Source: Balanoglossus misakiensis (taxonomy: Eukaryota; Animalia; Hemichordata). Taken from it: DNA of 64,000 bases. Position numbers and translations under genes: made by a program. Under the pieces are notes generated by a model. The model was not told where the DNA came from, did no database searches, and worked only from the letters and a program-made list of their open reading frames with translations. The DNA lies in contig CM082589.2 in NCBI GenBank assembly GCA_040954595.2, positions 7,623,186-7,687,185 on the forward strand, written 5' to 3'. Positions 9,981 through 55,159 of the stretch are shown here, in pieces. Position 1 is the stretch's first letter; each line of letters begins with the position of its first letter.

Positions 9981-10130
9981 TAGTACATGCAGGTCTCCAA
10001 GTTGAGCAGCCGTTTTAAACTTCGGATTTACCGCGTGTGGTTATCGTCTGTTTCCGGTAAAGCGCCCTCTTTGGCAATACAACGAAACTGTAGACGAATT
10101 CTATGGCTCGGTGACAAACACCAAAGCATG
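9981..10130 (-). other. Probable non-coding first exon of the minus-strand gene
   Basis: Strong donor (CTA|GTAAGT) at 9980 at the edge of a CpG-richer stretch; acceptor-like CTAAG just upstream of the ATG exon near 9145. The 5' boundary is approximate. Confidence 0.4.
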
Positions 10131-11042: not shown

Positions 11043-11606
11043 TTAGGGCCCAAGCGCGCACAAGCGCTTGGGCCCTATTGGTTTCGTTGGAATTTTTTAG
11101 GGCCCAAGCGCACGCAAGCGCTTGGGCCCTATTGGTTTCGTTGGAATTTTTAGGGCCCAAGCGCAAGCAAGCGCTTGGGCCCTATTGGTTTCGTCTGGGT
11201 TTTTCTGTCTTTAGGGCCCAAGCGCTTGCTTGCGCTTGGGCCCTATTGGTTTCGTTGGGGTTTTTTAGGGCCCAAGCCAAGCCAGGCTTGGGCCCTATTG
11301 GTTTCGTTGGTATTTTTCAGTCTTTCTTTCTTTCTTTAGGGCCCAAGCGCAAGCAAGCGCTTGGGCCCTATTGGTTTCGTTGGGGTTTTTCTTTAGGGCC
11401 CAAGCGCAAGCCAGCGCTTGGGCCCTATTGGTTTCGTTGGGGTTTTTTACGGGCCCAAGCCAAGCCAGGCTTGGGCCCGTATTGGTTTCGTTGGAATTTT
11501 TAGGGCCCAAGCGCATACCAGCGCTTGGGCCCTATTGGTTTCGTTGGGGTTTTTACGGGCCCAAGCCAAGCCAGGCTTGGGCCCGTATTGGTTTCGTTGG
11601 AATTTT
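11043..11606 (+). repeat. Stack of ten 5' hairpin heads (~52-71 bp period)
   Basis: Hairpins start at 11046, 11100, 11153, 11214, 11268, 11339, 11396, 11451, 11503, 11557, each followed by TATTGGTTTCGT(T/C)..G and a T tract. Confidence 0.95.
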
Positions 11607-14600
11607 ACTTTCTTTCTTTATTCTTGTGTCAATTCTTTGACCCACGAGATCTCAGACATCGCTGCAGGTACACTTCTGAAACTTGCTACAGTGGTCAAGG
11701 TCAATGAGTAGTCGTGCATTAAACCCTTGAATTTTTAATTAGTCACGTGACCTGGCGGCCATATTGGATTTTCTGAAAATCTTTAAATGGCTTCTTCTCA
11801 AAAACCACAGGGCCAATCAAGTTCAAATTTGGTGTATGGTACACATGTCCTCTGCCCTTCAAAGTTTGACAATAAAATCCTGAGCGGTCACGTGACTTTG
11901 GCCGCCATATTGGATTTTCGAAAAAGTACAGTAAAATCTTCAAAAATCTTCTTCTCCAGAACCGGCAATAACCGAGTCATGGGATTTAGGGTATGACATC
12001 ACCTAACTGATGTCTATCAAGTTTGCGAAGAGCGTTGTGATTGGTCGAAGATAATGGCGGCCATATTGGATTTTGTAAAAACCAGCGAAAATTAAGAAAT
12101 CATTTTTCTAGTCTAAAAATAGATAGCATACAAATTCTTTTTATGGATATGAGTCGTCATATGACTAGAATATGTTGCAAATATTTTGGCAATTTTCACA
12201 TGACCTTTGACCTACTTTTTTAAGAACCTGCATATATGCATATATAGCTCATACAACGTGTTCTAAATGTACCAGAGTTCTGATTTTTGTGCACATTGGT
12301 ATCACCCCTGCCAGGACCTACCCCAAATATTTTGGTAATTTTGGCAATGACCTTTGACCTACTTTTGACACATCGTTTTTTTGCATATCTAATTCCAGGC
12401 TAACCTATAGGGCTATCATTTTGGTTTTTGGTGTATGTGTATTTGTATGTGATCAAAAAATTTCGCTACTTTTCATGACCCCTTTGACCTCTGCTGACCT
12501 CATTAAATATGTGCATACCTAATTACAGATGAACCAATAGACCTAGAGGTTTGGTTTTTGTTGGACATGAACCAGTATTGGGTCAAATTTTTTTGCCCAA
12601 ATGTTGGGTGACCTCGGATGACCTTTGACCTACTTTTGCATATCTCGACATCCACAGCAGATACAGCCTTGGCGTTTGGAGGTTTGGGGCCATAATGAAA
12701 AGCCAAAGTTTTGGGTCACCTGTGACACCTGCTTAACTCATTATTTATGTGCATACCTAATTCCGGGCTAACCAAAAGGGCTAGAGGTCTGGTTTTTGTT
12801 GAACATGGACCACTATGGGTCAACATTTTCTGCCCAAATTTTGGGTGACCTCAGATGACCTTTGACCTACTTAACACTATATCAGCACTAAACATAGATA
12901 TAATCTTGATATTTCATGGGATAAACCACAGCAATTTGTTTCTACTCATTAATTATGTGCATATCTAATAATCAGATCAGATAATAGAGCTTGGGCCCGG
13001 ACAATGCTGCTTGCAGCTTTAATTCTGTCTTTCCTTCTTTCTTCTTTCTTTCTTTCTTTATTCTTGTGTCAATTCTTTGTCGCTCTAGATCTCAGACACC
13101 GCTGCAGGTACACTTCTGAAACTTGCTACAGTGGTCAAGGTCAATGAGTAGTCGTGCATTGAACCTGTGAATTTTTAATTAGTCACGTGACCTGGCGGCC
13201 ATATTGGATTTTCTAAAAAAATGCAAATCTCAGATCTCAGAAACTACAAGTCAGATCAACTTCAAATTTGGCATGCTGGTAGACTACCTTCTACCCATCA
13301 TTTTTGTAATTGGAAATTATGCTGACAATGTTGCAGTTTTTTTGCTACAATTTTTTTTCTGAAATCTGGCTTAAATTTCAAAAATCTTCTTCTCCAGAAC
13401 CGGCAATAACCAAGTCACGCCGTTTGGGGTATGTGGTCACCTAACAGATGTCTATCAAGTTTGCGAAGATCATTGTGATTGGTCGAAGATTATGGCGGCC
13501 ATATTGGATTTTCGAAAAACCATAGTAAAAATTCAAAAATCTTCTTCTCCAGAACGGGCGATAACCGAGTCACAAGATTTGGTGTGTGTGGTCATTAAAG
13601 AGATGTCTATCAAGTTTGCGAAGGGAAATGTGATTGGTCGAAGATTACGGCGGCCATATTGGATTTTGTGAAAAACGATTAAAAAGTAAAAATTCCTTTT
13701 CTAGCCTAAAAATTGATAGCACAGAAATTCTTTTTATGGATATGAATCATCATATGACAAGAATAAGCTATAAATATTTTGGTAATTTTGGCAATGACCT
13801 TTGACCTACTTTTGACGAATCATTTTTCTGCATATCTAATTCCAGGCTAACCAATAGGGCTATAAGTTTGGTTTTTGATGTATGTGGATTTGTATGTGAT
13901 CAAAAAATTTTGCTAGTTTTCATGACCCCTTTAACCTCTGGTGACCTCATTAAATATGCGCATACCTAATTAATGATTAACCAATAGACCTAGAGGTGTT
14001 GTTTTTGTTATACATGGACCAGTATGGGGTCAGAATTTTTTGCCCAAATGTTGGGTGACCTCGGGTGACCTTTGACCTACTTTGGCATATCTTGAAATCC
14101 ACAGCAGATACAGCCTTGGCGTTTGGAGGTATAGGGCCATAATGAAAAGCCAAAGTTTTGGGTCACCTGTGACACCTGCTTAACTCATTATTTATGTGCA
14201 TACCTAATTCCGGGCTAACCAAAAGGGCTAGAGATCTGGTTTTTGTTGGACATAGACCACTATGGGTCAAAATATTCTGCCCAAATAATTGGTGACCTCT
14301 GGGTGACCTTTGACCTACTTAATACTATGTCAACACCAAACCTAGATATAACCTTGATATTTCATGGGATAAAACACAGCATTATGTTTCTACTCATTAA
14401 TTATGTGCATATCTAATAATCAGATCAGATAATAGAGCTTGGGCCCGGACAATGCTGCTTGCAGCTTTAATACTTTCTTTCTTTCTTTATTCTTGTGTCA
14501 ATTCTTTGACCCACGAGATCTCAGACACCGCTGCAGGTACACTTCTGAAACTTGCTACAGTGGTCAAGGTCAATGAGTAGTCGTGCATTGAACCCTTGAA

Positions 14601-15374
14601 TTTTTAATTAGTCACATGACCTGGCGGCCATCTTGGATTTTCTGAAAAAATGCAAATCTCAGATCTCAGAAACTACAAGTCAGATCGACTTCAAATTTGG
14701 CATGCTGGTAGACTACCTTCTTGCAATCATTTTTGTAATTGGAAATTATACTGACAAAGTTGCAATTTTTTGCTACAATTTTTTTTCTGAAATCTGGCTT
14801 AAATTTCAAAAATCTTCTTCTCCAGAACCAGTGATAACCGAGTCACGCGGTTTGGGGTATGTGGTCACCTAACTGATGTCTATCAAGTTTGCGAAGATCA
14901 TTGTGATTGGTTGAAGATTATGGCAGCCATATTGGATTTTCGAAAAACCATAGTAAAATTTCAAAAATCTTCTTCTCAAGAACCGGCGATAACTGAGTCA
15001 CAAGATTTGGTGTGTGTGGTCATTAAACAGATGTCTATCAAGTTTGCGAAGAGGAATGTGATTGGTCGAAGATTATGGCGGCCATATTGGATTTTGTGAA
15101 AAACGATTAAAAAGTAAAAATTCCCTTTCTAGCCTTAAAATTGATAGCACAGAAATTCTTTTTACGGATATGAATCATCATATGCCAAGAATAAGCTATA
15201 AATATTTTGGTAATTTTGGCAATGACCTTTGACCTACTTTTGACGCATGATTTTTCTGCATATCTAATTCCAGGCTAACCAATAGGGCTATAAGTTTGGT
15301 TTTTGATGTATGTGGATTTGTATGTGATCAAAAAATGTTGCTACTTTTCATGACCCCTTTGACCTCTGGTGACC

Positions 15375-16460
15375 TCATTAAATATGCACATACCTAATTA
15401 CAGATGAACCAATAGACCTAGAAGTTTTGTTTTTGTTATACATGGACCAGTATGGGGTCAAAATATTTTGCCCAAATTTTGGGTGACCTCGGGTGACCTT
15501 TGACCTACTTTTGCATATCTTGACATCCACAGCAGATACAGCCTTGGCGTTTGGAGGTATGGGGCAATAATGAAAAGCCAAAGTTTTGGGTCACCTGTGA
15601 TACCTGCTTAACTCATTAATTATGTGCATACCTAATTCTAGGCTAACCAAAAGGGCTAGAGGTCTGTTTTTTGATGGACATGGACCACTATGGGTCAAAA
15701 TTTTCTGCCCAAATTTTGGATGACCTCAGATGACCTTTGACGTACTTTTGCATATCTCGGCATCCAAAGCAGGTACAGCCTTGGCATTTGGAGGTATGGG
15801 GCCATAATGAAAAGCCAAAGTTTTGGGTCACCTGTGACACCTGCTTTACTCATTATTTATGTGCATACCTAATTCTAGGCTAACCAAAAGGGCTAGAGGT
15901 CTGTTTTTTGTTGGATATGGACCACTATGGGTCAAAATTTTCTGCCCAAATTTTGGATGACCTCGGGTGACCTTTGACCTACTTTTGCATATCTTGACAT
16001 CCACAGCAGATACAGCCTTGGCGTTTGGAGGTATGGGGCCATAATGTAAAGCCAAAGTTTTGGGTCACCTGTGACACCTGCTTAACTCATTAATTATGTG
16101 CATACCTAATTCTAGGCTAACCAAAAGGGCTAGAGGTCTGTTTTTTGATGGACATGGACAACTATGGGTCAAAATTTTCTGCCCAAATTTTGGATGACCT
16201 CAGATGACCTTTGACGTACTTTTGCATATCTCGGCATCCAAAGCAGGTACAGCCTTGTCATTTGGAGGTATGGGGCCATAATGAAAAGCCAAAGTTTTGG
16301 GTCACCTGTGACACCTGCTTTACGCATTATGTATGTGCATACCTAATTCCAGGCTAACCAAAAGGGCTAGAGGTCTGGTTTTTGTTGGACATGGACCACT
16401 ATGGGTCAAAATTTTCTGCCCAAATGTTGGGTGACCTCTGGGTGACCTTTGACCTACTTA
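15375..16460 (+). repeat. 237-bp internal tandem repeat expanded to ~4.5 copies in element 3
   Basis: TCACCTGTGA landmark recurs at 15591, 15828, 16065, 16302. Confidence 0.9.
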
Positions 16461-19400
16461 ACACTTTAACAGCACCAAACATACATATAACCTTGATATT
16501 TCATGGGATAAAACAGCATTATGTTTCTACTCATTAATTATGTGCATATCTAATATCAGATCAGATAATAGAGCTTGGGCCCGGACAATGCTGCTTGCAG
16601 CTTTAATCTTTCTTTCTTCTTTCTTTATTCTTGTGTCAATTCTTTGTCGCTCTAGATCTCAGACACCACTGCAGGTACACTTCTGAAACTTGCTACAGTG
16701 GTCAAGGTCAATGAGTAGTCGTGCATTGAACCCTTGAATTTCTAATTAGTCACATGACCTGGCAGCCATCTTGGATTTTCTGAAAATATGCAAATCTCAG
16801 ATCTCAGAAACTACAAGTCAGATCGACTTCAAATTTGGCGTGCAGGTAGACTACCTTCTGCTTATCATTTTTGTAATTGGAAATTTTGCTGTCAATGTTG
16901 CAGTTTTTTTGCTACAGTTGTTTTTCTGAAATCTGGTCAAAATTTCAAAAATCTTCTTCTCCAGAACCGGCGATAACCGAGTCACGCGGTTTGGGGTATG
17001 TGGTCACCAAACTGAGGTCTATCAAGTTTGCGAAGATCATTGTGATTGGTGGAAGATTATGGCGGCCATATTGGATTTTCGAAAAACCCTAGTAAAATTT
17101 CAAAAATCTTCTTCTCAAGAACCGGCGATAACCGAGTCACAAGATTTGGTGTGTGTGGTCATTAAACAGATGTCTATCAAGTTTGCGAAGATCATTGTGA
17201 TTGGTCGAAGATTTTGGCGGCCATATTGGATTTTGTGAACAACGATTAAAAAGTAAAAATTCTGTTTCTAGCCTAAAAATTGATAGCACAGAAATTCTTT
17301 TTATGGATATGAATCATCATATGACAAGAATAACCTATAAATATTTTGATAATTTTGGCAATGACCTTTGACCTACTTTTGACGAATCATTTTTCTGCAT
17401 ATCTAATTCCAGGCTAACCAATAGGGCTATAAGTTTGGTTTTTGATGTATGTGGATTTGTATGTGATCAAAAAATTTTGCTACTTTTCATGACCCCTTTG
17501 ACCTCTGCTGACCTCATTAAATATGCATATACCTAATTACAGATGAACCAATAGACCTAGAGGTTTTGCTTTTGTTATACATGGACCAGTATGGGGTCAA
17601 AATATTTTGCCCAAATGTTGGGTGACCTCGGGTGACTTTTGACCTATTTAACACTATATTAGCATCAGATCAGATAATAGAGCTTGGGCCCGGACAATGC
17701 TGCTTGCAGCTTTAATTCTTTCTTTCTTTAGGGCCCAAGCGCATACCAGCGCTTGGGCCCTATTGGTTTCGTTGGGGTTTTTCAGTCTTTCTTTCCTTCT
17801 TTATTCTTGGTTCCATTTTTCGGCCACCTAAATCTCAAAAACTGCAGCACCAACCAGGCTGAAACTTGGTAGGCAGATAGGGGCCAATCAGTAGATGTGC
17901 AGTGGCTCGTGAATATTTAATTAGTCACGTGACCTGGCGGCCATATTGGATTTTCTGAAAAAATGCAAATCTCAGATCTCAGAAACTACAAGTCAGATTG
18001 ACTTCAAATTTGGTGTGCAGCTAGTATACCTTATGCCCATCATTTTTGTAATTGGATATTATGCTGTCAATGTTGCAGTTTTTTTGCTACAGTTGTTTTT
18101 CTGAAATCTGGTCAAATTTTCAAAAATCTTCTTCTCCAGAACCGGCGATAACCGAGTCACGCCATTTGAGGTATGTGGTCACCCAACTGATGTCTATCAA
18201 GTTTGCGAAGATCATTGTGATTGGTCGAAGATTATGGCGGCCATATTGGATTTTCGAAAAACCATAGTAAAACTTCAAAAATCTTCTTCTCAAGAACGGG
18301 CGATAACCGAGTCACAAGATTTGGTGTGTGTGGTCATTAAACAGATGTCTATCAAGTTTGCGAAGGGGAATGTGATTGGTCGAAGATTATGGCGGCCATA
18401 TTGGATTTTGTGAAAAACGATTAAAAAGTAAAAATTCCCTTTCTAGCCTAAAAATTGATAGCACAGAAATTCTTTTTATGGATATGAATCATCATATGAC
18501 AAGAATAAGCTATAAATATTTTGGTAATTTTGGCAATGACCTTTGACCTACTTTTGACGCATCATTTTTCTGCATATCTAATTCTAGGCTAACCAATAGG
18601 GCTATAAGTTTGGTTTTTGATGTATGTGGATTTGTATGTGATCAAAAAATTTTGCTACTTTTCATGACCCCTTTGACCTCTGCTGACCTCATTAAATATG
18701 CACATACCTAATTACAGATGAACCGATAGACCTAGAGATTTTGTTTTTGTTATACATGGACCAGTATGGGGTCAAAATATTTTGCCCAAATGTTGGGTGA
18801 CCTCGGGTGACCTTTGACCTACTTTTGCATATCTCGACATCCACAGCAGATACAGCCTTGGCATTTGGAGGTATGGGGCCATAATGAAAAGCCAAAGTTT
18901 TGGGTCACCTGTGACACCTGCTTTACTCATTATTTATGTGCATACCTAATTCCGGGCTAACCAAAATGGCTAGAGGTCTGGTTTTTGTTGGACATGGACC
19001 ACTATGGGTCAAAATGTTCTGCCCAAATTGTGGATGACCCCTGGGTGACCTTTGATGTTTCTACTCATTAATTATGTGCATATCTAATAATCAGATCAGA
19101 TAATAGAGCTTGGGCCCGGACAATGCTGCTTGCAGCTTTAATTCTTTCTTTCTTTTTTCTTGTGTCAATTCTTCGGCCAACTAAATCTCTGAAACTACTG
19201 CAGGTACACTGCTCAAACTTGCTACAGTGGTCAAGGTCTATGAGTAGATGTGCAGTGACTTGTGAATACTTAATTAGTCACGTGACTTGGCGGCCATATT
19301 GGATTTTCTGAAAAAATGCAAATCTCAGATCTCAGAAACTACAAGTCAGATCGACTTCAAATTTGGCATGCAGGTAGACTACCTTCTACTCATCATTTTT

Positions 19401-20559
19401 GTAATTGGAAATTTTGCTGTCAATGTTGCAGTTTTTTTGCTACAATTTTTTTTCTGAAATCTGGCTTAAATTTCAAAAATCTTCTTCTCCAGAACCGGTG
19501 ATAACCGAGACACGCGGTTTAGGGTATGTGGTCACCTAACTGATGTCTATCAAGTTTGCGAAGATCATTGTGATTGGTCGAAGATTATGGCGGCCATATT
19601 GGATTTTCGAAAAACCATAGTTAAACTGCAAAAATCTTCTTCTCCAGAACGGGCGATGACTTAGTCGCAAGATTCGAGGAGTATGGTCACTACACTGATG
19701 TCTATCAAGTTTGCAAAGAGCATTGTGATTGGTCGGAGATTATGGCGGCCATATTGGATTTTGTAAAAAGCAGTGAAAAATTGAAATTCCTTTTTCTAGT
19801 CTAAAAATTGATAGCATACAAATTCTTTTTATGGATATCAATCGTCATGTGACTAAAATGTGTTACAATTTTTTGGCGATTTTTCACATGACCTTTGACC
19901 TACTTATCACGCGTTATTATTTCTGCATATCTAATTCCAGGCTAACCTGTAGGGCTAGACGTTTGGTTTTTGATGAATGTGGATTAATGTGTGATCAAAA
20001 TATTTTGCTACTTTTCATGACCCCTTTGACCTCTGCTGACCTCATTAATTATGTGCATAGCTAATTACAGGCGAACCAATAGAGCTAGAGGTTTGGTTTT
20101 TGTTGGACATGGACCAGAATGGGATCAAAATTTTTTGCCCAAATGTTGCGTGACCTCTGGTGACCTTTGACCTACTTTCGCATATCTCAGCATCCAGAGC
20201 AGATACAGCCATGGCATTTGGTAGGATGGGACCAAAATGTAAAGCCACATTTTTGGGTCAACTGTGACACCTGCTGACCTCATTAAATATGCACATACCT
20301 AATTACACGCAAACCAATAGAGCTAGAGTTTTGGTTTTTATTGGACATTATGGGTAAAAAAAAATTACCCAAATGTTGGGTGACCTCAGGTGACCTTTGA
20401 CCTACTTCACCCTATTTCAGCAGCAAAAATACACACATCCTTGTTATGTCATGAGATAATACATCCGATAGAAAATTCTGCTTCTTCTCATTCACACTGT
20501 GCATATATAATTCAAGATCAGCGCTTGGGCCCGACAATGCTGCTCGCAGCTTTAATTCT

Positions 20560-23500
20560 TTAGGGCACAAGCGCCCTCAGGCGCTTGTGCCCTATTGGTT
20601 TTACCCTGTTTTTTAGGGCACAAGCCAAGCAGGCTTGTGCCCTATTGGTATTACTGGGGTTTTTCATCTTTTTTTTTTTTTTTTTTTTCTTGTGTAGTTT
20701 TTTTGCTCAGGTAGATCTTGAAAACGGCTGAACCTACAAATCTCAAACTTGGCACAGTGGTGCAGGCCTATGAGAGCTGGTGCAGTATTCTCGTGAATGT
20801 TTAATAAGTCATGTGACCTGATGTCCATATATGGGCAAAGTTTTCAAATGGGCCTAATTTGCATATGAATGGAGATATCAAAATTCTTTTAGCGATTTTT
20901 GCGGACCATGTGGTCAGTGTCCTACATGCCAAATGTCAAGGCCGTGGGCCAAGTCTATTTTGAGAAGAAGATTTTTTTATTTTTCATATTTTTGGACCCA
21001 GCCATAGGCCTATACTTTCTATAGTTAAGCTATGATGCTATGTCCACGTCGGCTGTGCAATGGTCCTGTACAGTGACTATCTATTGGCCCGTGAGCAGAA
21101 TTGGACCACAATAAAAGGCAAAATTTTGGGCTCACCTGTAACACCTGCTTAACTCATTAATTATGTGCATACCTAATTCCAGGCTAACTAATACGGCTAG
21201 AGGTTTTGTTCTTGTGGGACTTGGACCAGTATGGGATCGAAAATTTTTGCCCAAATTTTGGGTGACCTCAAGTGACCTTTGACCTACTTTCCTATATCTC
21301 GGCATCCACAGCATTTACAGACTTGGCGTTTGGAGGGTTGTGACTAAAATTGAAAAGACTTAATTATGTGCATACCTAATTCCAGGCTAGCCAATAGGGC
21401 TAGAGGTTTGATTTTTGTTGAACATGGACCAGTATGAGGTTAAAATTTCTTGCCCAATTTTAGGTGACCTCAGGTGACCTTTGACCTACTTTACCATATC
21501 TCGGCAACCAGCGCAGATACAGCCTTAGCATTTGGAGGCATGGAACTCCTAATGAAGCCTTATACTTTACCTCATTAATTATGTGCATATCTAATTCTAG
21601 GTGAACCAATAGGGTTAGAGGTCTGATTTTTGTTAGACCTGGACTGGTATGGGGGTCAAAACTTTTTACCCAATTTTTTGGTGACCACATATGACCTTTG
21701 ACCTTCGGCTTAAGCTTGGGCCCGTCATCGCTGCTTGCAGCTATATTTCTTCTACTTCTTTTTCTTGTGCAGTTTTTTTGCCAACTAGGATCTTGGAAAC
21801 GGCTGAAGCTACGAATCTCAAACTTGGCACAATGGTGCAGGTCTATGAGAGCTCGTGCAGTACCCTCGTGAATGTGTAATTAGTCACATGACCTGATGAC
21901 CATATATGGGCAAAGTTTTCAAATGGGCCTAATTTGCATAGTAATGGAGATATCTAAATTCTTTTAGCGATTTTAGCAGACCATGTGGTCAGTGTCCTAC
22001 ATGCCAAATTTCAAGGCCCTGGGCCAAGTCAAGTTTGAGAAGAAGATTTTTAAATATTATATTTCATATTTTTTGTACCCATGAGCCTATACTGTCTTTA
22101 GTTAAGGTGTGATGCTATTCCCACATCTGTGCAATGGTCCTGTACAGTGACAGTCTATTGGCAGTGAGCAGAATGGGACCAAAATAAAAGGCAGAATTTT
22201 GGGCTCACCTGTAACACCTGCTTAACTCATTAATTATGTGCATACCTAATTCTGGGCTAACTAATAGGGCTAGAGGTTTCGTGCTTGTGGGACATGGACC
22301 ATTATAGGGTCAAAATTTCTTGCCCAAATTTTGCATGACCTCAGGTGACCTTTGACCTACTTTCCTATATCTCGTCATCCAGAGCAGGTACAGACTTTGA
22401 GTTTGGAGGGTTGGGACTATAATTGAAAAGCCAAAATTTGGGGTCACCTGTGACACCTGCTTATCTCATTAATTATGTGCATACCTAATTCCAGGCTAAC
22501 CAATAGGGCTAGAGGTTTGATTTTCGTTGAACGTGGACCACTATGGGATAAAATTTCTTGCCAAAATTTTGGGTGACCTCAGGTGACCTTTGACCTACTT
22601 TACCATATCTCGGCAACCAGAGCAGATACAGCCTTGGCATTTGGAGGGATGGAACTCCTAATGGAGCCTTACACTTTACCTCATTAATTATGTGCATACC
22701 TAATTCCAGGCTAGCCAATAGAGCTAGAGGTTTGATTTTTGTTGAACATGGACCAGTATGGGATTAAAATTTCTTGCCCAATTTTGGGTGACCTCAGGTG
22801 ACCTTTGACCTACTTTCCTATATCTCGGCATCCAGAACAGGTACAGCATTTGTGTTTGGATGGATCGAACTTTTGCCCAAATTTTGGGTGACCACATATG
22901 ACCTTTGACCTTCAGCTTAAGCTTGTGCCCGTCATCGCTGCTTGCAGCTATATATATATATTTTTTTTTCTTGTGTAGTTTTTTTGCTCAGTTAGATCTT
23001 GAAAACGGCTGAACCTACAAATCTCAAACTTGGCACAGTGGTGCAGGTCTATGAGAGCTCGTGCAGTACCCTCGTGAATGTGTAATTAGTCACATGACCT
23101 GATGACCATATATGGGCAAAGTTTTCAAATGGGCCTAATTTGCATATGAATGACGATATCAAAATTCTGTGCAATCATTTTGCTGACCATATGGTCAGTG
23201 TCCTACATGCCAAATTTCAAGGCTCTGGGCCAAGTCAATTTTGAGAAGAAGATTTGTAAATATTATATTTCATATTTTTTGGACCCAGCCATAGGCCTAT
23301 ACTTTCTATAGTTAAGCTATGATGCTATGTCCACATCTGTGCAATGTTTAAAAGCCAAAATTGGGGGTCACCTGTGACACCTACTTATCTCATTAATTAT
23401 GTGCATACCTAATTCCAGGCCAACCAATAGGGTTATAGGTTTGGTTTTTGTTGAACATGGACCAGTATAGGGTCAAAATTTCTTGCCCAAATTTTGGGTG

Positions 23501-24019
23501 ACCTCAGGTGACCTTTGACCTACTTTCCTATATCTCCGCTTCCAGAGCAGGTACAGATTTGGCGTTTGGAGGGTTGGGACTAAAATTTAAAAGCCAAAAT
23601 TGGGGGTCACCTGTGACACCTGCTTATCTCATTAATTATGTGCATACCTAATTCCAGGCTAACCAATAGGGCTAGAGGTTTAATTTTTGCTGAACATGGA
23701 CCAGTATGGGGTCAAAATTTCTTGCCCAAATTTTGGGTGACCTCAGGTGACCTTTGACCTACTTTACCATATCCCGGCATGCACAGCAGCTACAGCCTTG
23801 GCATTTGGAGGGATGGAACTCCTGATGGAGCCTTACACTTTATCTCATTAATTATGCACATACATAATTGTAGGCGAACCAATAGGGCTAGAGATTTTGT
23901 TCTTGTGGGACACGGACCAGTATGGGGTCAAAATTTCTTGCCCAAATTTTGGGTGACCACTTATGACCTCTGACCTTCGGCTTAAGCTTGGGCCCGTCAT
24001 CGCTGCTTGCAGCTATATT
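20560..24019 (+). mobile_element. Three divergent 'type B' elements with two GGGCACAAGC heads
   Basis: Distinct body sequence (AAACGGCTGAA..CTCAAACTTGGCACA); tails GCTTG(G/T)GCCCGTCATCGCTGCTTGCAGCTATAT; heads at 20563 and 20616. Confidence 0.8.
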
Positions 24020-25819: not shown

Positions 25820-26275
25820 TTCAAAAATCTTCTTCTCCAGAACCGGCGATAACCGAGTCACGCCGTTTGGGGTATGTGGTCACCTAACAGATGTCTATCA
25901 AGTTTGCGAAGATCATTGTGATTGGTCGAAGATTATGGCGGCCATATTGGATTTTCGAAAAACCCTAGTAAAATTTCAAAAATCTTCTTCTCCAGAACCG
26001 GCGATAACCGAGTCACGCCGTTTGGGGTATGTGGTCACCTAACAGATGTCTATCAAGTTTGCGAAGATCATTGTGATTGGTTGAAGATTATGGCGGCCAT
26101 ATTGGATTTTCGAAAAACCATAGTAAAACTTCAAAAATCTTCTTCTCAAGAACGGGCGATAACTGAGTCACAAGATTTGGTGTGTGTGGTCATTAAACAG
26201 ATGTCTATCAAGTTTGCGAAGGGGAATGTGATTGGTCGAAGATTATGGCGGCCATATTGGATTTTGTGAAAAATG
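25820..26275 (+). repeat. 155-bp internal tandem repeat, three copies (two in most elements)
   Basis: AAAATCTTCTTCTC landmark at 155-bp spacing (25824, 25979, 26134). Confidence 0.9.
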
Positions 26276-41700: not shown

Positions 41701-42060
41701 AGCCTTGGCGTTTTGAGGTATGGGGTCATAATGAAAAGCCAAATTTTTGGGTCACCAGTGACACCTGCTGACCTCATTAAATATGCACATACCTAATTAC
41801 ACGCAAACTAATAGAGCTAGAGTTTTGGTTTTTGTTGGACATGGACCACTATGGGTCAAAATTTTCTGCCCAAATTGTGGGTGACCTCTGGGTGACCTTT
41901 GACCTGCTTAACACTATATCAACACCAAACATAGATATAACCTTGATATGTCATGGGATAAAACACAGCATTATGTTTCTACTCATTAATTATGTGCATA
42001 TCTAATAATCAGATCAGATAATAGAGCTTGGGCCCGGACAATGCTGCTTGCAGCTTTAAT

Positions 42061-43468
42061 CTTTTTCTTCTTCTTCTTCTTCTTCTTCTGTCGTTTTTTC
42101 GGCCAGGTAGATCTGGGAAACGGCTAAACCTACCAATTTCAAACTTGGCACAATGGTGCAGGCCAATGAGAGCTAGTGCAGTACCCTTGTGAATGTTTAA
42201 TTAGTCACGTGACCTGATGACCATATAAGGACAAAATTTTCAAATTGGCCTTATTTGCATATGAATGGACATATCAAAATTCTTTTAGCAAGCTTTACGG
42301 ACCATATGGCCAGGGTTCTACATGCCAAATGTCAAGGCCATAGGCCATGTCAATTTTGATAAGAAGATTTTTAAGTATTATTTTTCATATTTTTCGCCCA
42401 AGCCATGGGCCTATACCTTACATAGTAAAGCTATGAACACATATTATTTTGGATAAATATGCATACATATCTCAAAATCTGTAAGGCCGATCATCTCCAA
42501 CTTTGGTGTGCAGCAAGCCTAGCATTTGTCAATAATTTTAAGCAAAAAAAAATAATATGAAAAATCGACCGATTTTTTTATATTAATTTTTTTATTAAAT
42601 TTATTCCTTTACTTATACCTCTATGGTTAAGCTATGTCCATGTCTTATTGTGGAATTCTTCTGGTCTGTGCAATGTACAGTGACTGTCTATTGGTCAGTG
42701 AGCACAATGGCACCAAAATAAAAGGCAAAATTTTAGGCTCACCTGTAACACCTGCTTAACTCATTAATTATGTGCATACCTAATTCTGGGCTAACTAAGA
42801 GGGCTAGAGGTTTCGTTCTTGTGGGACATGGACCAGTATAGGGTCAAAATTTCTTGCCAAAATTTGGGGTGACCTCAGGTGACCTTTGACCTACTTTCCT
42901 ATATCTCGGCATCCAGAGCAGGTACAGACTTGGCGTTTGGAGGGTTGGGACTTAAGTTGAAAAGCCAAAATAGGGGTCACCTGTGACACCTGCATATCTC
43001 ATTAATTATGTGCATACCTAATTCCAGGCTAACCAATAGGGCTATAGGTTTGGTTTTTGTTGAACGTGGACCAGTATAGGGTCAAAATTTATTGCCCAAC
43101 TTTTGCATGACCTCAGGTGACCTTTGACCTACTTTACCATATCTTGGCATCGAGAGCAGGTACAGACTTGGCGTTTGGAGGGTTGGGACTAAAATTGAAA
43201 AGCCAAATTGGGGGGGTCACCTGTGACACCTGCCTACCTCATTTATTATGTGCATACCTAATTCCAGGCTAACCAATAGGGCTATAGGTTTGGTTTTTGA
43301 TGAACATGGACCAGTATAGGGTCAAAATTTCTCGCCCAAATTTTGCATGACCTCAGGTGACCTTTGACCTTCTTTTCCATATCTTGGCATCCAGAGCAGA
43401 TATGCTTATTGCTATGTTGCTATGTGCTATGTTGGCTTGGGCCCGCCATTGCTGCTTGCAGCTATATT
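42061..43468 (+). mobile_element. Type B element body (its head inferred at 40534)
   Basis: Homologous to the 20690-24019 bodies; tail GCTTGGGCCCGCCATTGCTGCTTGCAGCTATAT. Confidence 0.8.
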
Positions 43469-46400
43469 TACGGGCCCAAGCCAAGCCAGGCTTGGGCCCG
43501 TATTGGTTTCGTTGGGGTTTTTCAGTCTTTCTTTCTTTCCTTCTTTATTCTTGGTTCCATTTTTCGGCCACCTAAATCTCAAAAACTGCAGCACCAACCA
43601 GGCTGAAACTTGGTAGGCAGATAGGGGCCAATGAGTAGATGTGCAGTGGCTCGTGAATATGTAATTAGTCACGTGACCTGGCGGCCATATTGGATTTTCT
43701 GAAAAAATGCAAATCTCAGATCTCAGAAACTACAAGTCAGATTGACTTCAAATTTGGTGTGCAGCTAGTATACCTTATGCCCATCATTTTTGTAATTGGA
43801 TATTATGCTGTCAATGTTGCAGTTTTTTTGCTACAGTTGTTTTTCTGAAATCTGGTCAAAATTTCAAAAATCTTCTTCTCCAGAACCGGCGATAACCGAG
43901 TCACGCTGTTTGGGGTATGTGGTCACCTAACTGATGTCTATCAAGTTTGCGAAGATCATTGTGATTGGTCGAAGATTATGGTGGCCATATTGGATTTTCG
44001 AAAAACCATAGTAAAACTTCAAAAATCTTCTTCTCCAGAACGGGCGATAACCGAGTCAAAATATTTGGTGTGTGTGGTCATTAAACAGATGTCTATCAAG
44101 ATTGCGAAGGGGAATGTGATTGGTCGAAGATTATGGCGGCCATATTGGATTTTGTGAAAAACGATTAAAAAGTAAAAATTCCCTTTCTAGCCTAAACATT
44201 GATAGCACAGAAATTCTTTTTATGGATATGAATCATCAAATGAGAAGAATAAGCTATAAATATTTTGGTAATTTTGGCAATGACCTTTGACCTACTTTTG
44301 ACGCATCATTTTTCTGCATATCTAATTCCAGGCTAACCAATAGGGCTATAAGTTTGGTTTTTGATGTATGTTGATTTGTATGTGATCAAAAAATTTTGCT
44401 ACTTTTCATGACCCCTTTGACCTCTGCTGACCTCATTAAATATGCACATACCTAATTAATGATGAACCAATAGACCTAGAGGTTTTGTTTTTGTTATACA
44501 TGGACCAGTATGGGGTCAAAATATTTTGCACAAATGTTGGGTGACCTCAGGTGACCTTTGACCTACTTTTGCATATCTCGACATCCACAGCAGATACAGC
44601 CTTGGCGTTAGGAGGTATGGGGCTATACTGAAAAGCCAAAGTTTTGGGTCACCTGTGACACCTGCTTAACTCATTATTTATGTGCATACCTAATTCCGGG
44701 TTAACCAAAAGGGCTAGAGGTCTGGTTTTTGTTGGACATGGACCACTATGGGTCAAAATATTCTGCCCAAATTGTGGGTGACCCCTGGGTGACCTTTGAC
44801 CTACTTAACACTATATCAGCACCAAACATAGATATAACCTTGATATTTCATGGGATAAAACACAGCATTATGTTTCTACTCATTAATTATGTGCATATCT
44901 AATAATCAGATCAGATAATAGAGCTTGGGCCCGGACAATGCTGCTTGCAGCTTTAATCTTTCTTTCTTTTTTCTTGTGTCAATTTCTTCGGCCAACGAGA
45001 TCTCTGAAACTACTGCAGGTACACTTCTCAAACTTGCTACAGTGGTCAAGGTCAATGAGTAGATGTGCAGTGACTTGTGAATAATTAATTAGTCACGTGA
45101 CCTGGCGGCCATATTGGATTTTCTGAAAAAATTCAAATCTCAGATCTCAGAAACTACAAGTCAGATCGACTTCAAATTTGGCATGCAGGTAGACTACCTT
45201 CTACCCATCATTTTTGTAATTGGAAATTTTGCTGTCAATGTTGCAGTTTTTTTGCGACAATTTTTTTTCTGAAATCTGGCTTAAATTTCAAAAATCTTCT
45301 TCTCCAGAACCAGTGATAACCGAGACACGGGGTTTGGGGTATGTGGTCACCTAACTGATGTCTATCAAGTTTGCGAAGATCAGTGTGATTGGTCGAAGAT
45401 TATGGCGGCCATATTGGATTTTGGAAAAACCATAGTTAAACTCCAAAAATCTTCTTCTCCAGAACGGGCGATGACTGAGTCGCAAGATTCGGGGAGTATG
45501 GTCACTACACTGATGTCTATCAAGTTTGCAAAGAGCATTGTGATTGGTCGAAGATTATGGCGGCCATATTGGATTTTGTAAAAAGCAGTGAAACATTGAA
45601 ATTCCTTTTTCTAGTCTAAAAATTGATAGCATACAAATTCTTTTTATGGATATCAATCGTCATGTGACTAAAATATGTTACAATTTTTTGGCGATTTTTC
45701 ATATGACCTTTGACCTACTTATCACGCGTTAGTATTTCTGCATATCTAATTCCAGGCTAACCTATAGGGCTAGACGTTTGGTTTTTGATGCATGTGGATT
45801 AGTGTGTGATCAAAATATTTTGCTACTTTTCATGACCCCTTTGACCTCTGCTGACCTCATTAATTATGTGCATAGCTAATTACAGGCGAACCAATAGAGC
45901 TAGAGGTTTGGTTTTTGTTGGACACAGACCAGTATGAGATCAAAAATTTTTGCCCAAATGTTGCGTGACCTCTGGTGACCTTTGACCTACTTTCGCATAT
46001 CTCAGCATCCAGAGCAGATACAGCCATGGCATTTGGTAGGATGGGACCAAAATGTAAAGCCACATTTTTGAGTCACCTGTGACACCTGCTGACCTCATTA
46101 AATATGCACATACCTAATTACAGGCGAACCAATAGAGCTAGAGTTTTGGTTTTTGTTGGACATAGACCAGTATGGGTCAAAAAATTTTGCCCAAATGTTG
46201 GGTGACCTCAGGTGACCTTTGACCTACTTTACCCTATTTCAGCAGCAAAAATACATACGTCTTTGTTATGTCATGAGATAAAACACCTGATAGAGCATTC
46301 TGTTTCTTCTCATTCATACTGTGCATATTATACCGGATCAGCGCTTGGGCCCGACAATGCTGCTTGCAGCTTTAATTTACGGGCCCAAGCCAAGCCAGGC

Positions 46401-49400
46401 TTGGGCCCGTATTGGTTTCGCTAGGGTTTTTCTGTCTTTCTTTCTTTCTTTCTTTCTTTATTCTTGGTTCCATTCTTTATCGCTCTAGATCTCAGACACC
46501 ACTGCAGATACAGTTCTCAAACTTGCTACAGTGGTCAAGGTCAATGAGTAGATGTGCAGTGACTTGTGAATACTTAATTAGTCACGTGACATGGCGGCCA
46601 TATTGGATTTTCTGAAAAAATGCAAATCACAGATCTCAGAAACTACAAGTCAGATCGACTTCAAATTTGGCATGCTGGTAGACTACCTTCTGCCCATCAT
46701 TTTTGTAATTGGAAATTATGCTGACAAAGTTGCAGTTTTTTTGCTACAATTTTTTTTCTGAAATCTGGCTTAAATTTCAAAATTCTTCTTCTCCAGAACC
46801 GGTGATAACCGAGACACGGGGTTTGGGGTATGTGGTCACCTAACTGATGTCTATCAAGTTTGCGAAGATCATTGTGATTGGTCCAAGATTATGGCGGCCA
46901 TATTGGATTTTCGAAAAACCCTAGTAAAATTTCAAAAATCTTCTTCTCAAGAACCGGCGATAACCGAGTCACAAGATTTGGTGTATGTGGTCATTAAACA
47001 TATGTCTATCAAGTTTGCAAAGAAGAATGTGATTGGTTGAAGATTATGGCGGCCATATTGGATTTTGTGAAAAACGATTAAAAAGTAAAAATTCCTTTTC
47101 TAGCCTAATAATTGATAGCACAGAAATTCTTTTTATGGATATGAATCATCATATGACAAGAATAAGCTATAAATATTTTGGTAATTTTGGCAATGACCTT
47201 TGACCTACTTTTGACGCATCATTTTTCTGCATATCTAATTCCAGGCTAACCAATAGGGCTATAAGTTTTGTTTTTGATGTATGTAGATTTGTATGTGATA
47301 AAAAAAATTTGCTACTTTTCATGACCCCTTTGACCTCTGCTGACCTCATTAAATATGTGCATACCTTATTACAGATTAACCAATAGACCTAGAGGTTTGG
47401 GTTTTTTTGGACTTGGATCAGTATGGGGTCAAAATATTTTGCCCAAATGTTGGGTGACCTCGGGTGACCTTTGACCTACTTTTGCATATCTCGGCATCCA
47501 AAGCAGGTACAGCCTTGGCATTTGGAGATATGGGGCCATAATGAAAAGCCAAAGTTTTGGGTCACCTGTGGCCTCTGCTGACCTCATTAATTATGTGCAT
47601 AGCTAATTACAGGCGAACCAATAGAGCTAGAGGTCTGGTTTTTGTTGGACATGGACCACTATGAGTAAACATTTTCTGCCCAAATTTTGGGTGACCTCAG
47701 ATGACCTTTGACCTACTTTTGCATATCACGGCATCCAAAGCAGGTACAGCCTTGGCATTTGGAGATATGGGGCCATAATGAAAAGCCAAAGTTTTGGGTC
47801 ACCTGTGACACCTGCTGACCTCATTTATCATGTGCATAGCTAATTCCAGGCAAACCAAAAGGGCTAGAGGTCTGGTTTTTGTTGGACATGGACCACTATG
47901 GGTCAAAATGTTCTGCCCAAATTGTGGGTGACCTCTGGGTGACCTTTGACCTACTTAACACTATATCAGCACCAAACATAGATATAACCTTGATATTTCA
48001 TGGGATAAAACACAGCATTATGTTTCTACTCATTAATTACGTGCATATCTAATAATCAGATCAGATAATAGAGCTTGGGCCCGGACAATGCTGCTTGCAG
48101 CTTTAATTACGGGCCCAAGCCAAGCCAGGCTTGGGCCCGTATTGGTTTCGCTGGGGTTTTTCTGTCTTTCTTTCTTTCTTTATTCTTGGTTCCATTTTTT
48201 ATCGCTCTAGATCTCAAACACCGCTGCAGGTACAGTTCTCAAACTTGCTACAGTGGTCAAGGTCAATGAGTAGATGTGCAGTGACTTGTGAATACTTAAT
48301 TAGTCACGTGACATGGCGGCCATCTTGGATTTTCTGAAAAAATGCAAATCTCAGATCTCAGAAACTGCAAGTCAGGTCGACTTCAAATTTGGCATGCTGG
48401 TAGACTACCTTCTGCCCATCATTTTTGTAATTAGAAATTATGCTGACAAAGTTGCCGTTTTTTTGCTACAATTTTTTTTCTGAAATCTGGCCTAAATTTC
48501 AAAAATCTTCTTCTCCAGAACCGGTGATAACCGAGACACGGGGTTTGGGGTATGTGGTCACCTAACTGATGTGTATCAAGTTTGCGAAGATCATAGTGAT
48601 TGGTCCTAGATTATGGCGGCCATATTGGATTTTCGAAAAACCCTAGTAAAATTTGAAAAATCTTCTACTCAAGAACCGGCGATAACCGAGTCACAAGATT
48701 TGGTGTGTGTGGTCATTAAACAGATGTCTATCAAGTTTGCGAAGATGAATGTGATTGGTCGAAGATTATTGCGGCCATATTGGATTTTGTGAAAAACGAT
48801 TAAAAAGTAAAAATTCCCTTTCTAGCCTAATAATTAATAGCACAGAAATTCTTTTTATGGATATGAATCATCATATGACAAGAATAAGCTATAAATATTT
48901 TGGTAATTTTGGCAATGACCTTTGACCTACTTTTGACGCATCATTTTTCTGCATATCTAATTCCAGGCTAACCAATAGGGCTATAAGTTTGGTTTTTGAT
49001 GTATGTGGATTTGTATGTGATCAAAAAATTTTGCTACTTCTCATGACCCCTTTGACCTCTGCTGACCGCATTAAATATGCACATACCTAATTAATGATGA
49101 ACCAATAGACCTTGAGGTTTTGTTTTTGTTATACAGTATGGGGTCAAAATATTTTGCCCAAATGTTGGGTGACCTTGGGTGACCTTTGACCTACTTTTGC
49201 ATATCTCGACATCCACAGCAGATACAGCCTTGGCGTTTGGAGGTATGGGGCCATAATGAAAAGCCAAAGTTTTGGGTCACCTGTGACACCTGCCTAACTC
49301 ATTATTTATGTGCATACCTAATTCCAGGCTAACCAAAAGGGCTAGAGGTCTGGTTTTTGTTGGACATGGACCACTATGGGTCAAAATTTTCTGCCCAAAT

Positions 49401-52400
49401 TGTGGGTGACCCCTGGGAGACCTTTGACCTACTTTACACTATATCAACACCAAACATAGATATAACCTTGATATTTCATGGGATAAAACAGAGCATTATG
49501 TTTCTACTCATTAATTATGTGCATATCTAATATCAGATCAGATAATAGAGCTTGGGCCCGGACAATGCTGCTTGCAGCTTTAATTCTTTCTTTATTCTTG
49601 TGTCAATTCTTCGGCCAACTAAATCTCTGAAACTACTGCAGGTACACTGCTCAAACTTGCTACAGTGGTCAAGGTCAATGAGTAGATGTGCAGTGACTTG
49701 TGAATACTTAATTAGTCACGTGACCTGGCGGCCATATTGGATTTTCTGAAAAAATGCAAATCTCAGATCTCAGAAACTACAAGTCAGATCGACTTCAAAT
49801 TTGGCATGCCGGTAGACTACCTTCTGCCCATCATTTTTGTAATCGGAAATTATGCTGTAAAAGTTGCAGTTTTTTTGCTACAATTTTTTTTCTGAAATCT
49901 GGCTTAAATTTCAAAAATCTTCTTCTTCAGAACCAGTGATAACCGAGTCACGGGGTTTGGGGTATGTGGTCACCTAACTGATATCTATCAAGTTTGCGAA
50001 GATCATTGTGATTGGTCGAAGATTATGGCGGCCATATTGGATTTTCGAAAAACCATAGTAAAACTGCAAAAATCTTCTTCTCCAGAACGGGTGATGACTG
50101 AGTCGCAAGATTCGGGGAATATGGTCACTACACTGATGTCTATCAAGTTTGCAAAGAACATTGTGATTGGTCGAAGATTGTGGCGGCCATATTGGATTTT
50201 GTAAAAAGCAGTGAAAAATTGAAATTCCCTTTTCTAGTCTAAAAATTGATAGCATACAAATTCTTTTTATGGATATCAATCGTCAGGTGACTAAAATATG
50301 TTACAATTTTTTGTCGATTTTTCACATGACCTTTGACCTACTTATCACGCGTTATTATTTCTGCATATCTAATTCCAGGCTAACCTATAGGGCTAGACGT
50401 TTGGTTTTTGATGAACATGGATTAGTGTGTGATCAAAATATTTTGCTACTTTTCATGACCCCTTTGACCTCTGCTGACCTCATTAATTATGTGCATAGCT
50501 AATTACAGGCGAACCAATAGAGCTAGAGGTTTGGTTTTTGTTGGACATGGACCAGTATGGGATCAAAATTTTTTGCCCAAATGTTGGGTGACCTCTGGTG
50601 ACCTTTGACCTACTTTCGCATATCTCAGCATCCAGAGCAGATAAAGCCATGGCATTTGGTAGGATGGGACCAAAATGTAAAGCCACATTTTTGGGTCACC
50701 TGTGACACCTGCTGACCTCATTAAATATGCACATACCTAATTACAGGCGAACCAATAGAGCTAGAGTTTTGGTTTTTGTTGGACATGGACCAGTATGGGT
50801 AAAAAAAAATTGCCCAAATGTTGGGTGACCTCAGGTGACCTTTGACCTACTTCACCCTATTTCAGCAGCAAAAATACACACATCCTCGTTATGTCATGAG
50901 ATAATACATCTGATAGAAAATTCTGTTTCTTCTCATTCATACTGTGCATATATAATTCAAGATCAGCGCTTGGGCCCGACAATGCTGCTCGCAGCTTTAA
51001 TCTTTCTTTCTTTCTTTATTCTTGTGTCAATTCTTCGGCCAACTAAATCTCTGAAACTACTGCAGGTACACTGCTCAAACTTGCTACAGTGGTCAAGGTC
51101 TATGAGTAGATGTGCAGTGACTTGTGAATACTTAATTAGTCACGTGACCTGGCGGCCATATTGGATTTTCTGAAAAAATGCAAATCTCAGATCTCAGAAA
51201 CTACAAGTCAGATCGACTTCAAATTTGGCATGCAGGTAGACTACCTTGTACCCATCATTTTTGTAATTGGAAATTTTGCTGTCAATGTTGCAGTTTTTTT
51301 GCTACAATTTTTTTTCTGAAATCTGGCTTAAATTTCAAAAATCTTCTTCTCCAGAACCAGTGATAACCGAGACACGGGGTTTGGGGTAAGTGGTCACCTA
51401 ACTGATGTCTATCAAGTTTGCGAAGATCATCGTGATTGGTCGAAGATTATGGCGGCCATATTGGATTTTCGAAAAACCATAGTTAAACTCCAAAAATCTT
51501 CTTCTCCAGAACGGGCGATGACTGAGTCGCAAGATTCGGGGAGTATGGTCACTACACTGATGTCTATCAAGTTTGCAAAGAGGATTGTGATTGGTCGAAG
51601 ATTATGGCGGCCATATTGGATTTTCTAAAAAGCAGTGAAAAATTGAAATTCCTTTTTCTAGTCCAAAAATTGATAGCATACAAATTCTTTTTATGGATAT
51701 CAATCGTCATGTGACTAAAATATGTTACAATTTTTTGGCGATTTTTCACATGACCTTTGACCTACTTATCACGCGTTATTATTTCTGCATATCTAATTCC
51801 AGGCTAACCTATAGGGCTAGACGTTTGGTTTTTGATGCTTGTGGATTAGTGTGTGATCAAAATATTTTGCTACTTTTCATGACCCCTTTGACCTCTCCTG
51901 ACCTCATTAATTATCTGCATAGCTAATTACAGGCGAACCAATAGAGCTAGAGGTTTGGTTTTTGTTGGACATGGACCAGTATGGGATCAAAATTTTTTGC
52001 CCAAATGTTTGGTGACCTCTGGTGACCTTTGACCTACTTTCGCATATCTCAGCATCCAGAGCAGATACAGCCATGGCATTTGGTAGGATGGGACCAAGAT
52101 GTAAAGCCACATTTTTGGGTCACCTGTGACACCTGCTGACCTCATTAAATATGCACATACCTAATTACAGGCGAACCAATAGAGCTAGAATTTTGGTTTT
52201 TGTTGGACATGGACCAGTATGGGTAAAAAAAAATTGCCCAAATGTTGGGTGACCTCAGGTGACCTTTGACCTACTTCACCCTATTTCAGCAGCAAAAATA
52301 CACACATCCTTGTTATGTCATGAGATAATACATCTGATAGAAAATTCTGTTTCTTCTCATTCATACTGTGCATATATAATTCAAGATCAGCGCTTGGGCC

Positions 52401-52979
52401 CGACAATGCTGCTCGCAGCTTTAATTTGCTTTTGGGTTCATTAAAATGCAGTTTTGAACTCTGTATTTTGTAAAATTTTCTTACAAACCCACCCCCTTCA
52501 CTTCTCGGTTTACAATGTCTCCCAACACAGAATACAAAATACTTAAAAAATAGAAACAATTTTCAGTTTTAATACCCACTGATAAGGGGAAACATCAGTT
52601 TCAAATTCTTTTCATGGGAGCGCTGTTTTTCTTTTTTACAAGATAGATAGGTGATGTGTTTTGCTCTGTGAAAGAAAATGGGGGGGGGGGATTTGAAAAT
52701 TTTAGCAGTTCGGAAGGGGGGGGATTTGAAAGTATTTCGGGTTGTTGAGGGGGGCATGTGAAAATTAACGGTAAAAAAAATTGAATTCTCCCGCCCCCCC
52801 CCCTCCAGAGGTGTTTGTGAATGCAGCCTAAGAACTGCAATGTTAACGAAGGTGCACAGATGAAACAGCAGTGCAACTTCATAGTGCTAGTTCAACTCTT
52901 TCACCAACTTGGGTCATTCAAAAACCATGTTTTTAATGGTAAAGTTGGACCTCTAAAGAAGGGACCAGGGGTGAAAGGG

Positions 52980-54684: not shown

Positions 54685-55159
<475 letters not shown>

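Follow-up and report, generated by a model that had tools for sequence, protein, structure and literature searches.

How does a block of 41 kb come to hold 26 front ends ("heads") of transposable elements, crowded into clusters, together with 28 bodies of the same elements, 18 of which look as if they had no head? This question is raised by a window of 64,000 nt from Balanoglossus misakiensis (assembly GCA_040954595.2, contig CM082589.2, positions 7,623,186-7,687,185, forward strand), the whole of which was analysed here. The block, hereafter the stack, extends from 11043 to 52425, consists of elements of the non-autonomous Helentron type, and sits between two 34-bp perfect terminal inverted repeats (TIRs) of another element. 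We propose with good confidence, as the most likely account, that the 28 elements of the stack accumulated at this locus, whole copies transposing again and again into the T-rich linker that lies behind the 5' hairpin of every copy.

Element anatomy and the pairing of heads with bodies

Motif scans recovered 26 heads and 28 bodies with their tails, all on the plus strand, and the heads lie in clusters of 10, 1, 2, 1, 4, 2, 3, 1, 1 and 1 in order, exactly as an initial annotation of the window had described. On the minus strand there is no head, and one stray tail-like match was found at 8064, outside the stack. A head is a unit of about 50 nt, made of a 12-14-bp hairpin on GGGC[C/A]CAAGC and its complement, followed by 17 nt. 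Next comes the linker, a T-run with a short microsatellite (CTTT, CTT, ATT or poly-T), and then a body of 1051-2117 bp with internal repeats of 155 bp and 237-239 bp. The body ends with the same 10-mer as the right arm of the hairpin, a 4-bp stem-loop and five further bases. The inverted-repeat pattern of the hairpin retrieves all 26 heads, and the three that were folded gave -18 to -21 kcal/mol; the stem-loop follows in 28 of 28 tails, its 4-bp stem having a weak energy in the four tails folded. The subterminal inverted repeat (subTIR) shared by the two ends has a 10-bp core in all 26 pairs, 25 of them perfect, and measures 10-13 bp with its extension; in ten pairs it has only 10 bp, slightly below the published range of about 11-16 bp. 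Its 3' copy begins 33-34 nt from the end of the element.

Four body families can be distinguished, A1 (14 bodies), A2 (nine), B (four) and C (one). They are interleaved along the stack, identities between families and copies span 55-98%, and all 28 bodies are distinct, no two being more than 97.7% alike. Judged by frame length, the elements are non-coding: the longest stop-free frame in the stack has 152 codons, and 20 frames reach at least 100 codons. Their ends are TT-A/G and TTTAA or TATAT, with subTIRs. A canonical Helitron (HLE1) was therefore rejected, since it has 5'-TC and 3'-CTRR ends without inverted repeats. Judged from the structural features of non-coding copies, the anatomy is that of the non-autonomous Helentron type (HINE/HLE2), and the structural features of such elements given in PMC11417382 are present as well. 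Of the hallmarks that the initial annotation had named for Helentron/Helitron2 non-autonomous elements, the 5' hairpin, the subterminal inverted repeats, the 3' stem-loop and insertion at TT are observed. It should be mentioned that Helentron and Helitron2 are separated by the endonuclease domain of the autonomous RepHel partner, and that the elements of the stack are non-coding. Rfam gave no match, the head motif had none in metagenome contigs, and genome contigs gave none. The tail motif occurs in metagenome contigs at two loci of another organism (L001, 71-102; L002, 2513-2921), which share the subTIR 10-mer and the 3' stem-loop and have unrelated interiors; the design of the ends is thus common to elements of another organism.

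When heads (numbered h1 to h26 from the left) are read as opening brackets and bodies (B1 to B28) as closing ones, the raw depth finishes at -2, so that two bodies must be headless. The initial annotation had set two bodies aside and had taken the exact closure of the remaining string as a sign of nesting. The string does close, and it does so trivially: each of the 153 possible choices of two dropped bodies, among the 18 that look headless for want of an adjacent head, gives a valid closure, because ten heads come first. Closure was therefore rejected as evidence.

The evidence comes instead from the types of the paired parts. A simple class rule (a loop ending in CCAG is A1, a head without TTTCG after the hairpin is non-A, and the remainder is A2) fits all ten intact pairs. 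Under last-in-first-out pairing, the head type given by this rule matches the body family in 16 of 16 split pairs, whereas first-in-first-out pairing gives at best six matches. The full score is obtained for six of the 153 drop choices, that is, B8 or B9 together with B11, B17 or B18. The two orphans named by the initial annotation (B9, 22969-24018, and B18, 35979-37623) thus form a fitting pair, and one of six that fit equally. When the head labels were shuffled and the best of the 153 choices was taken each time, 16 matches were never reached in 20,000 trials, and the maximum of 15 was reached three times. A comparison of head distance with body distance over the 16 split pairs agrees (Mantel rho 0.71, with four of 20,000 permutations as high), and first-in-first-out pairing gives a rho of -0.16.

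Individual pairs point the same way. h15 and the tail of B15, 5.7 kb apart, share a 12-bp subTIR unique to them. One type of loop occurs in h4 and h16 and in no other head, and the bodies that belong to them, B19 and B14, are each other's closest copies. h8 is identical to h10, and the same 5' end and linker start are found in both of the corresponding bodies, B3 and B1. We therefore hold, with considerable assurance, that heads and bodies pair as nested brackets, built by repeated insertion. The depth of nesting peaks at 10, at the head at 11553, and the first head is closed by the last tail, that of B28, which forms the outermost 3' end; on both points the initial annotation was right.

Insertion sites and target choice

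The linkers, which total 773 bp, received all 25 inner insertions. The bodies total 39,369 bp and offer 405 and 277 T5 and A5 runs, respectively, and yet they contain no insertion in either orientation. The 25 insertions use 19 sites at several positions of the linker, and five hosts carry two to four direct guests, so the target is not one repeated site. The earlier claim that newcomers hit the same site of an earlier copy holds for the linker behind the head; within this linker of 25-40 nt, it gives way to several positions, some of them preferred.

Each guest adds two T. When two T are subtracted per guest, the T-run of the host is restored at 17 of the 19 inner sites: to five T at nine first-run sites, to four at h8 (as in its twin h10), to three at six CTTT sites and to two at the ATT site. 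The two exceptions are one site with one T over and one that is left with six. Among unsplit heads, nine of ten have five T and one has four. A single right-hand T is present at seven sites, all of them among the nine sites that require one (p 7e-4). The best fit is an element that starts with 5'-TT and carries no 3' T: 18 of 20 sites are then T|T and the other two are A|T. If each end has one T instead, 13 of 20 are T|T. A TT target-site duplication, as well as two T at both ends, is excluded because seven of 20 sites carry one T on the right; a 1-bp T duplication is indistinguishable from a terminal T at these sites.

These counts bear on the view that the block is a satellite-like array, in which body repeats of 1.4 kb and head repeats of 54 bp were amplified independently by unequal crossing-over or as rolling-circle concatemers. 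Such an origin would suit the mosaic bodies, and Tandem Repeats Finder does call the head clusters 53-57-bp arrays; seven of the 28 bodies have a neighbour as their nearest copy, and the adjacent B17 and B18 are equal in length and mutually nearest (95.4%). A satellite, however, predicts neither a mirror-order match of heads and bodies tens of kilobases apart nor complementary T counts, and four interleaved families at 55-98% identity speak against it. Identity between bodies does not depend on distance (rho -0.08, p 0.40). Concatemers or circle recombination would yield head-body-head-body and not head-head-body-body, and a tail goes straight to a head at only six of the 27 junctions after a tail. 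Homologous integration of circles was rejected on similar grounds: it would give head-body-head-body with swapped partners, which is not seen. The likeness of the headless candidates B11 and B18, described below, also fails to cross their junction. The satellite or concatemer reading is thus already largely refuted and is in our view highly improbable, in agreement with the initial annotation, which had set it aside.

If repeated insertion into linkers built the stack, what guides each copy to its site? TTTCTTT occurs 71 times in heads and linkers against twice in bodies, the sequence immediately after most cuts is one or two T and then CTTT, and the hits in CTTT units are all in one register. 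At the same time, 19 of the 25 insertions have a subTIR 10-mer 30-34 nt upstream (the head arm in 13 cases and a tail in six), which matches the spacing of the element's own 3' end (33-34 nt). Of the 16 hosts, 13 have their leftmost cut within 30-34 nt, where uniform T|T steps would lead one to expect 3.6 (0 of 100,000). Two points count against a spacing rule: six of the 25 insertions lie at 37-57 nt, and the 5' edge of the pyrimidine tract is a confounding factor. It is likely that target choice combines the local T/CTTT sequence with the subTIR 10-mer as a landmark 30-34 nt upstream; because of these two points, the landmark and a pure sequence preference are about equally probable.

A pure preference would mean that there is no self-recognition, the transposase favouring T-runs and then CTTT, which the element happens to carry by chance. 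We give this explanation slightly less than an even chance. Besides the near-confinement of TTTCTTT to linkers and the shared register, it is consistent with the heads that have CAGT or CTGT after the first run, two of three of which are hit later in the tract, with a published preference for poly-T (PMC4067079), and with a lepidopteran Helitron-like family reported to disrupt GAAA repeats (PMID 20217059). On the other hand, the hits cluster 30-34 nt from the subTIR and not across the tract, and this includes two B heads with another repeat; the 23-kb flanks, with both strands counted, offer 24 TTTCTTT sites, none of which carries a copy, a weak point, few being expected. A bolder and more doubtful possibility is that the Helentron transposase recognises its own subTIR in chromosomal DNA and cuts 30-34 nt downstream, as at the 3' end of the donor. 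The family would then be self-homing, each insertion providing the next preferred target, and would build stacks of tens of kilobases that spare genes. Long repeat arrays, which are otherwise attributed to unequal exchange or rolling-circle concatemers, would thereby have a third origin of general importance.

Order of events, rival accounts and the surrounding locus

The events may be pictured as follows. The starting point would have been the arrival of a first copy in a TIR element. Single intact copies with a 5'-TT start would then have been inserted by a RepHel transposase from another part of the genome, each immediately before a T of a T-run or of a CTTT unit and without TT duplication. 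Every guest would have parted the head of its host from the body while supplying a new target, and the stack would thus have sustained its own growth.

The pairing can be drawn as a tree with ten leaves, 11 hosts of one guest and five hosts of two to four guests. Under uniform attachment, a height of 10 has a p of 0.01, and ten or fewer leaves a p of 0.04; the best-fitting attachment model for this one tree leaves a linker that has been hit with 0.2-0.5 of its appeal. Unsplit linkers seem to be favoured, driving depth. The stack gives a host-before-guest order, with siblings unordered. The last-in-first-out record claimed by the initial annotation therefore stands as a partial order, and does not stand as a single linear chronology. 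A2 hosts A1 seven times and the reverse occurs once, and A, B and C each host and are hosted; their activity therefore overlapped, and it is likely that a single short period saw all four subfamilies active.

Several observations weigh against building in place by successive insertion. Private differences amount to 0.5-2.6% in the A copies and show no trend by depth (rho -0.04, p 0.85), so that the comparison of divergence with depth for which the initial annotation had asked reveals no fall, and the host is more diverged than its guest in seven of 19 pairs. The class rule was written after inspection of all heads, with one intact example of A2, one of B and none of C, and a blind classifier by nearest intact head uniquely named the family in only seven of the 16 split pairs; it was set aside, the non-A1 training pairs being too few. 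Two bodies lack heads. The nearest copy is the physical neighbour for seven of 28 bodies against 3.4 expected, and because five of these seven adjoin orphans, local exchange is possible near orphans. Two of 20 sites read A|T instead of T|T even under the best end model. No transposase was found in the window. Finally, no rebuilt element was met as an intact solo copy, and among the 15 joints listed, of 86, for contigs of two runs (X1 and X2) of one sample there is no head-to-body joint; these contigs are cut at the microsatellite, and the joints proved uninformative as a test between last-in-first-out and first-in-first-out order.

Because private differences show no trend, it is likely either that the stack grew up within a time that is brief compared with its age, or that exchange among copies has blurred the picture. 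Dating by private mutations was abandoned for the same lack of relation to depth, B and C having too few copies (four and one). The bodies are mosaic. Chimeric bodies include B5 (17805) and B23 (43549), with a family-C-like 5' end on an A1 body, and B12 (27324), with an A1-type 5' end on an A2 body; B1 (11622) and B16 (32895) have a different middle in common. Head class tracks the type of the tail and not the 5' end of the body.

As for the two headless bodies, the most likely explanation is that their heads were lost by collapse of adjacent similar heads, or that they arrived by read-through from a nested donor. B11 and B18 have a common linker and differ at two of their first 200 bases, being as close as the independent intact pairs B10/B21 and B5/B23. 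A junction-spanning duplication was rejected for them, since the likeness stops at the junction: the tails preceding them are not close, the 3' ends of B10 and B17 ranking 36th of 91. Collapse of two like heads standing side by side would explain B11/B18; the alternative, read-through from a nested donor, best suits the contiguous B trio.

Read-through leads to a broader rival, which accepts the nest but holds that part of it was put together at another place. Composite blocks, such as the family-B block or pieces of the form head-head-body and head-body-body, would have moved in as units, so that position does not date the pieces. The two headless bodies suit such moves. Three of the four B bodies stand side by side and show 90% identity, compared with 94-98% among A2 bodies, and nested donors in published models yield extra heads (PMC5148889) or extra tails (PMC3288121). 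Contigs with one head behind another also reach about 20 times the flank depth in both runs, and such junctions likely exist elsewhere too. Frequent composite moves, however, would unbalance heads and bodies and break their concordance, and 16 of 16 matches with only two surplus bodies are observed. The look-alike groups h9-h10-B1-B2 and h19-h20-B16-B17 are not duplicates, B2 and B17 being 93% identical and B1 and B16 differing at 22 of their first 200 bases. We regard this rival as unlikely for the stack as a whole; for one or two blocks it is compatible with repeated insertion in place.

The run contigs give weak evidence from beyond the stack. Head and bodies pile up to more than 1000 times the depth of unique flank, which is not a copy number and marks the element family as high-copy only. 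In seven contigs, h1-like heads run on into CTTT repeats, as intact copies should. A head T-run joined to the start of another head has a depth of 1568 in X1 and 3875 in X2, against 68 and 143-182 for the flank, in contigs whose shorter side has 20 letters, under the warning level of the tool. Because this depth is far above that of the flank although the window has three such head-behind-head junctions, it hints that nesting occurs elsewhere in the genome.

Could the whole order be an artefact of assembly, with repeats collapsed or shuffled? At several sites no run contig shows the letter of the window, a weak sign because contigs drop rare variants, and an orphan could have arisen if the assembler merged two adjacent heads. 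However, each of the 28 bodies differs from all others, neither the mirror-order concordance nor the T rule is expected from an assembler, and both flanks belong to one TIR pair. The argument against misassembly is thus one of internal coherence only, and we consider such an artefact extremely improbable.

The positions of the parts are collected in Table 1. The host TIR element has TA outside both ends, and its length without the stack is 787 bp. It is G-rich and high-copy in the run contigs, where its left part shows loose ends before 10660, and its right part begins with a 77% direct copy of 10813-10864. That the two TIR flanks rejoin as one intact copy is unproven; among the 12 loose ends listed, of 371, for the run contigs, none lies at 11043 as an empty outer site would require.

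The window DNA is animal-like, with intron-containing genes on both sides of the stack, and BLAST of four representatives against 1-10600 and 52901-64000 found no element copy in the flanks. On the minus strand, 1-10300 holds an apparent multi-exon gene whose 5' end may be a few hundred bases from the stack. On the plus strand, about 56800-61750 carries exons that we take, from catalytic motifs recognised in the translations, to be those of a secreted subtilisin-like (S8) protease with a pro-domain, and about 61950-63250 carries two similar exons presumably related to Link (hyaluronan-binding) modules. Another short high-copy repeat lies at about 10130-10275, immediately left of the host TIR element. 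Long tetranucleotide microsatellites occur at 54780-55159 and 57659-58311 (95 and up to 152 units); neither is of CTTT type and neither has an insertion. The single-copy flank positions 9899 and 10078-10103 differ between the two runs recorded as one sample, which suggests two haplotypes or a pool.

Table 1. Parts of the stack and of the element around it (h, head; B, body; square brackets enclose nested units)
Feature	Positions	Strand	Remarks
Left part of host TIR element	10661-11042		34-bp perfect TIR, TA outside
Head cluster h1-h10 with left linker pieces	11043-11621	+	Spine of the nest, depth 1-10; motif scans
B1-B4 (A1), intact guest h11+B5 (17728-19141), B6 (A2)	11622-20555	+	Close h10, h9, h8, h7, h11, h6
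Family-B block: h12, h13, B7, B8, B9	20560-24018	+	B8 or B9 headless
Intact guest h14+B10, then B11 (A1)	24019-27065	+	B11 closes h5 in the pairing of the initial annotation
Sub-nest h15 (family C) [h16 [h17 [h18 B12] B13] B14] B15	27066-32772	+	Four deep, self-contained
h19 [h20 B16] B17, then B18	32773-37623	+	One of B11, B17, B18 headless
B19, B20 (A2)	37643-40452	+	Close h4 and h3
Sub-nest h21 [h22 [h23 B21] B22] [h24 B23] B24	40477-46375	+	A2, B, A1, A1
Intact guests h25+B25, h26+B26	46377-49583	+	Tail-to-head, joined by T only
B27, B28 (A2)	49596-52424	+	Close h2 and h1; outermost 3' end
Right part of host TIR element	52425-52828		TIR ends at 52828, TA outside

Comparison with known systems

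For Helitron2/Helentron elements, what is known of target choice amounts to "between T and T", the number of terminal T being left open in the papers cited here; the stack offers 25 insertions into targets of known prior sequence, which lead to the two-T rule, the register and the spacing. It also preserves the balanced nested parent that models from Fusarium and maize only inferred, and its four subfamilies hosting one another mean overlapping activity. There is a warning here too: such blocks will be annotated as satellites or truncated copies. The novelty of self-nesting was overstated in the initial annotation, since insertion into the 5' end of a relative (PMC5148889, PMC13342296) and nested maize Helitrons (PMC3288121) have been published. 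The locus is less surprising because this habit was already known in shallow form; it is a deep, well-tested variant of a published habit, with a testable targeting rule. Our literature search, with most subscription journals, Repbase Reports and supplements outside it, found no description of a deep balanced Helentron stack or of a spacing rule.

The closest match in anatomy is with the HINE and DINE-1 elements (Thomas, Vadnagara and Pritham 2014, PMC4067079; Yang and Barbash 2008, PMC2374699). They share with the elements of the stack a 5' subTIR with a nested inverted repeat, a microsatellite behind it, central tandem repeats, a 3' subTIR with a small stem-loop, the lack of an open reading frame and a T-rich target; they are described as lacking a target-site duplication, and in the stack a duplication of TT is excluded. 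In the parts of those papers used here, they are described as dispersed copies and no self-nested stack appears, and the division of the flanking T between the two ends is left open. Here, each guest brings exactly two T, and the subTIR of 10-13 bp is at the short end of the range. Cg_HINE of the Pacific oyster (Vojvoda Zeljko et al. 2020, PMC7492417) has the same order of modules, a 4-nt microsatellite at the left end, central repeats of about 150-240 bp, a TT target and insertions into other repeats. Its arrays consist of the central repeats, and the word "nested" is absent from the part of that text used here; in the stack, by contrast, the units of the array are entire elements, which are interrupted at the linker.

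The closest match in behaviour is FoHeli, a Helitron2 of Fusarium (Chellapan et al. 2016, PMC5148889; PMC13342296), which is proposed to insert in the first <200 bp of a relative and so to stack two to five 5' ends. In that system a single 3' end serves several heads and the nested parent has been deduced, whereas here the balanced parent survives, 26 heads have their bodies, the depth is 10 and four subfamilies take part. In nested maize Helitrons (PMC3288121), which are invoked to account for multiple 3' termini, transposition runs from an inner 5' end through several 3' ends, which is a model for headless bodies; they differ in being canonical Helitron1 elements, with shallow nesting and no fixed target in the host element. 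An HLE2 of Xenopus with two left ends has also been described (PMC11417382). Oriented and recurrent insertion into a short simple repeat is known from Helitrons at the chromosome ends of Paramecium, where the repeat is telomeric (PMC13085455), and is reported for lepidopteran MINE elements in GAAA repeats (PMID 20217059). In both of these systems the target is a repeat of the host, whereas in the stack the element itself carries the target, and each insertion makes a new one.

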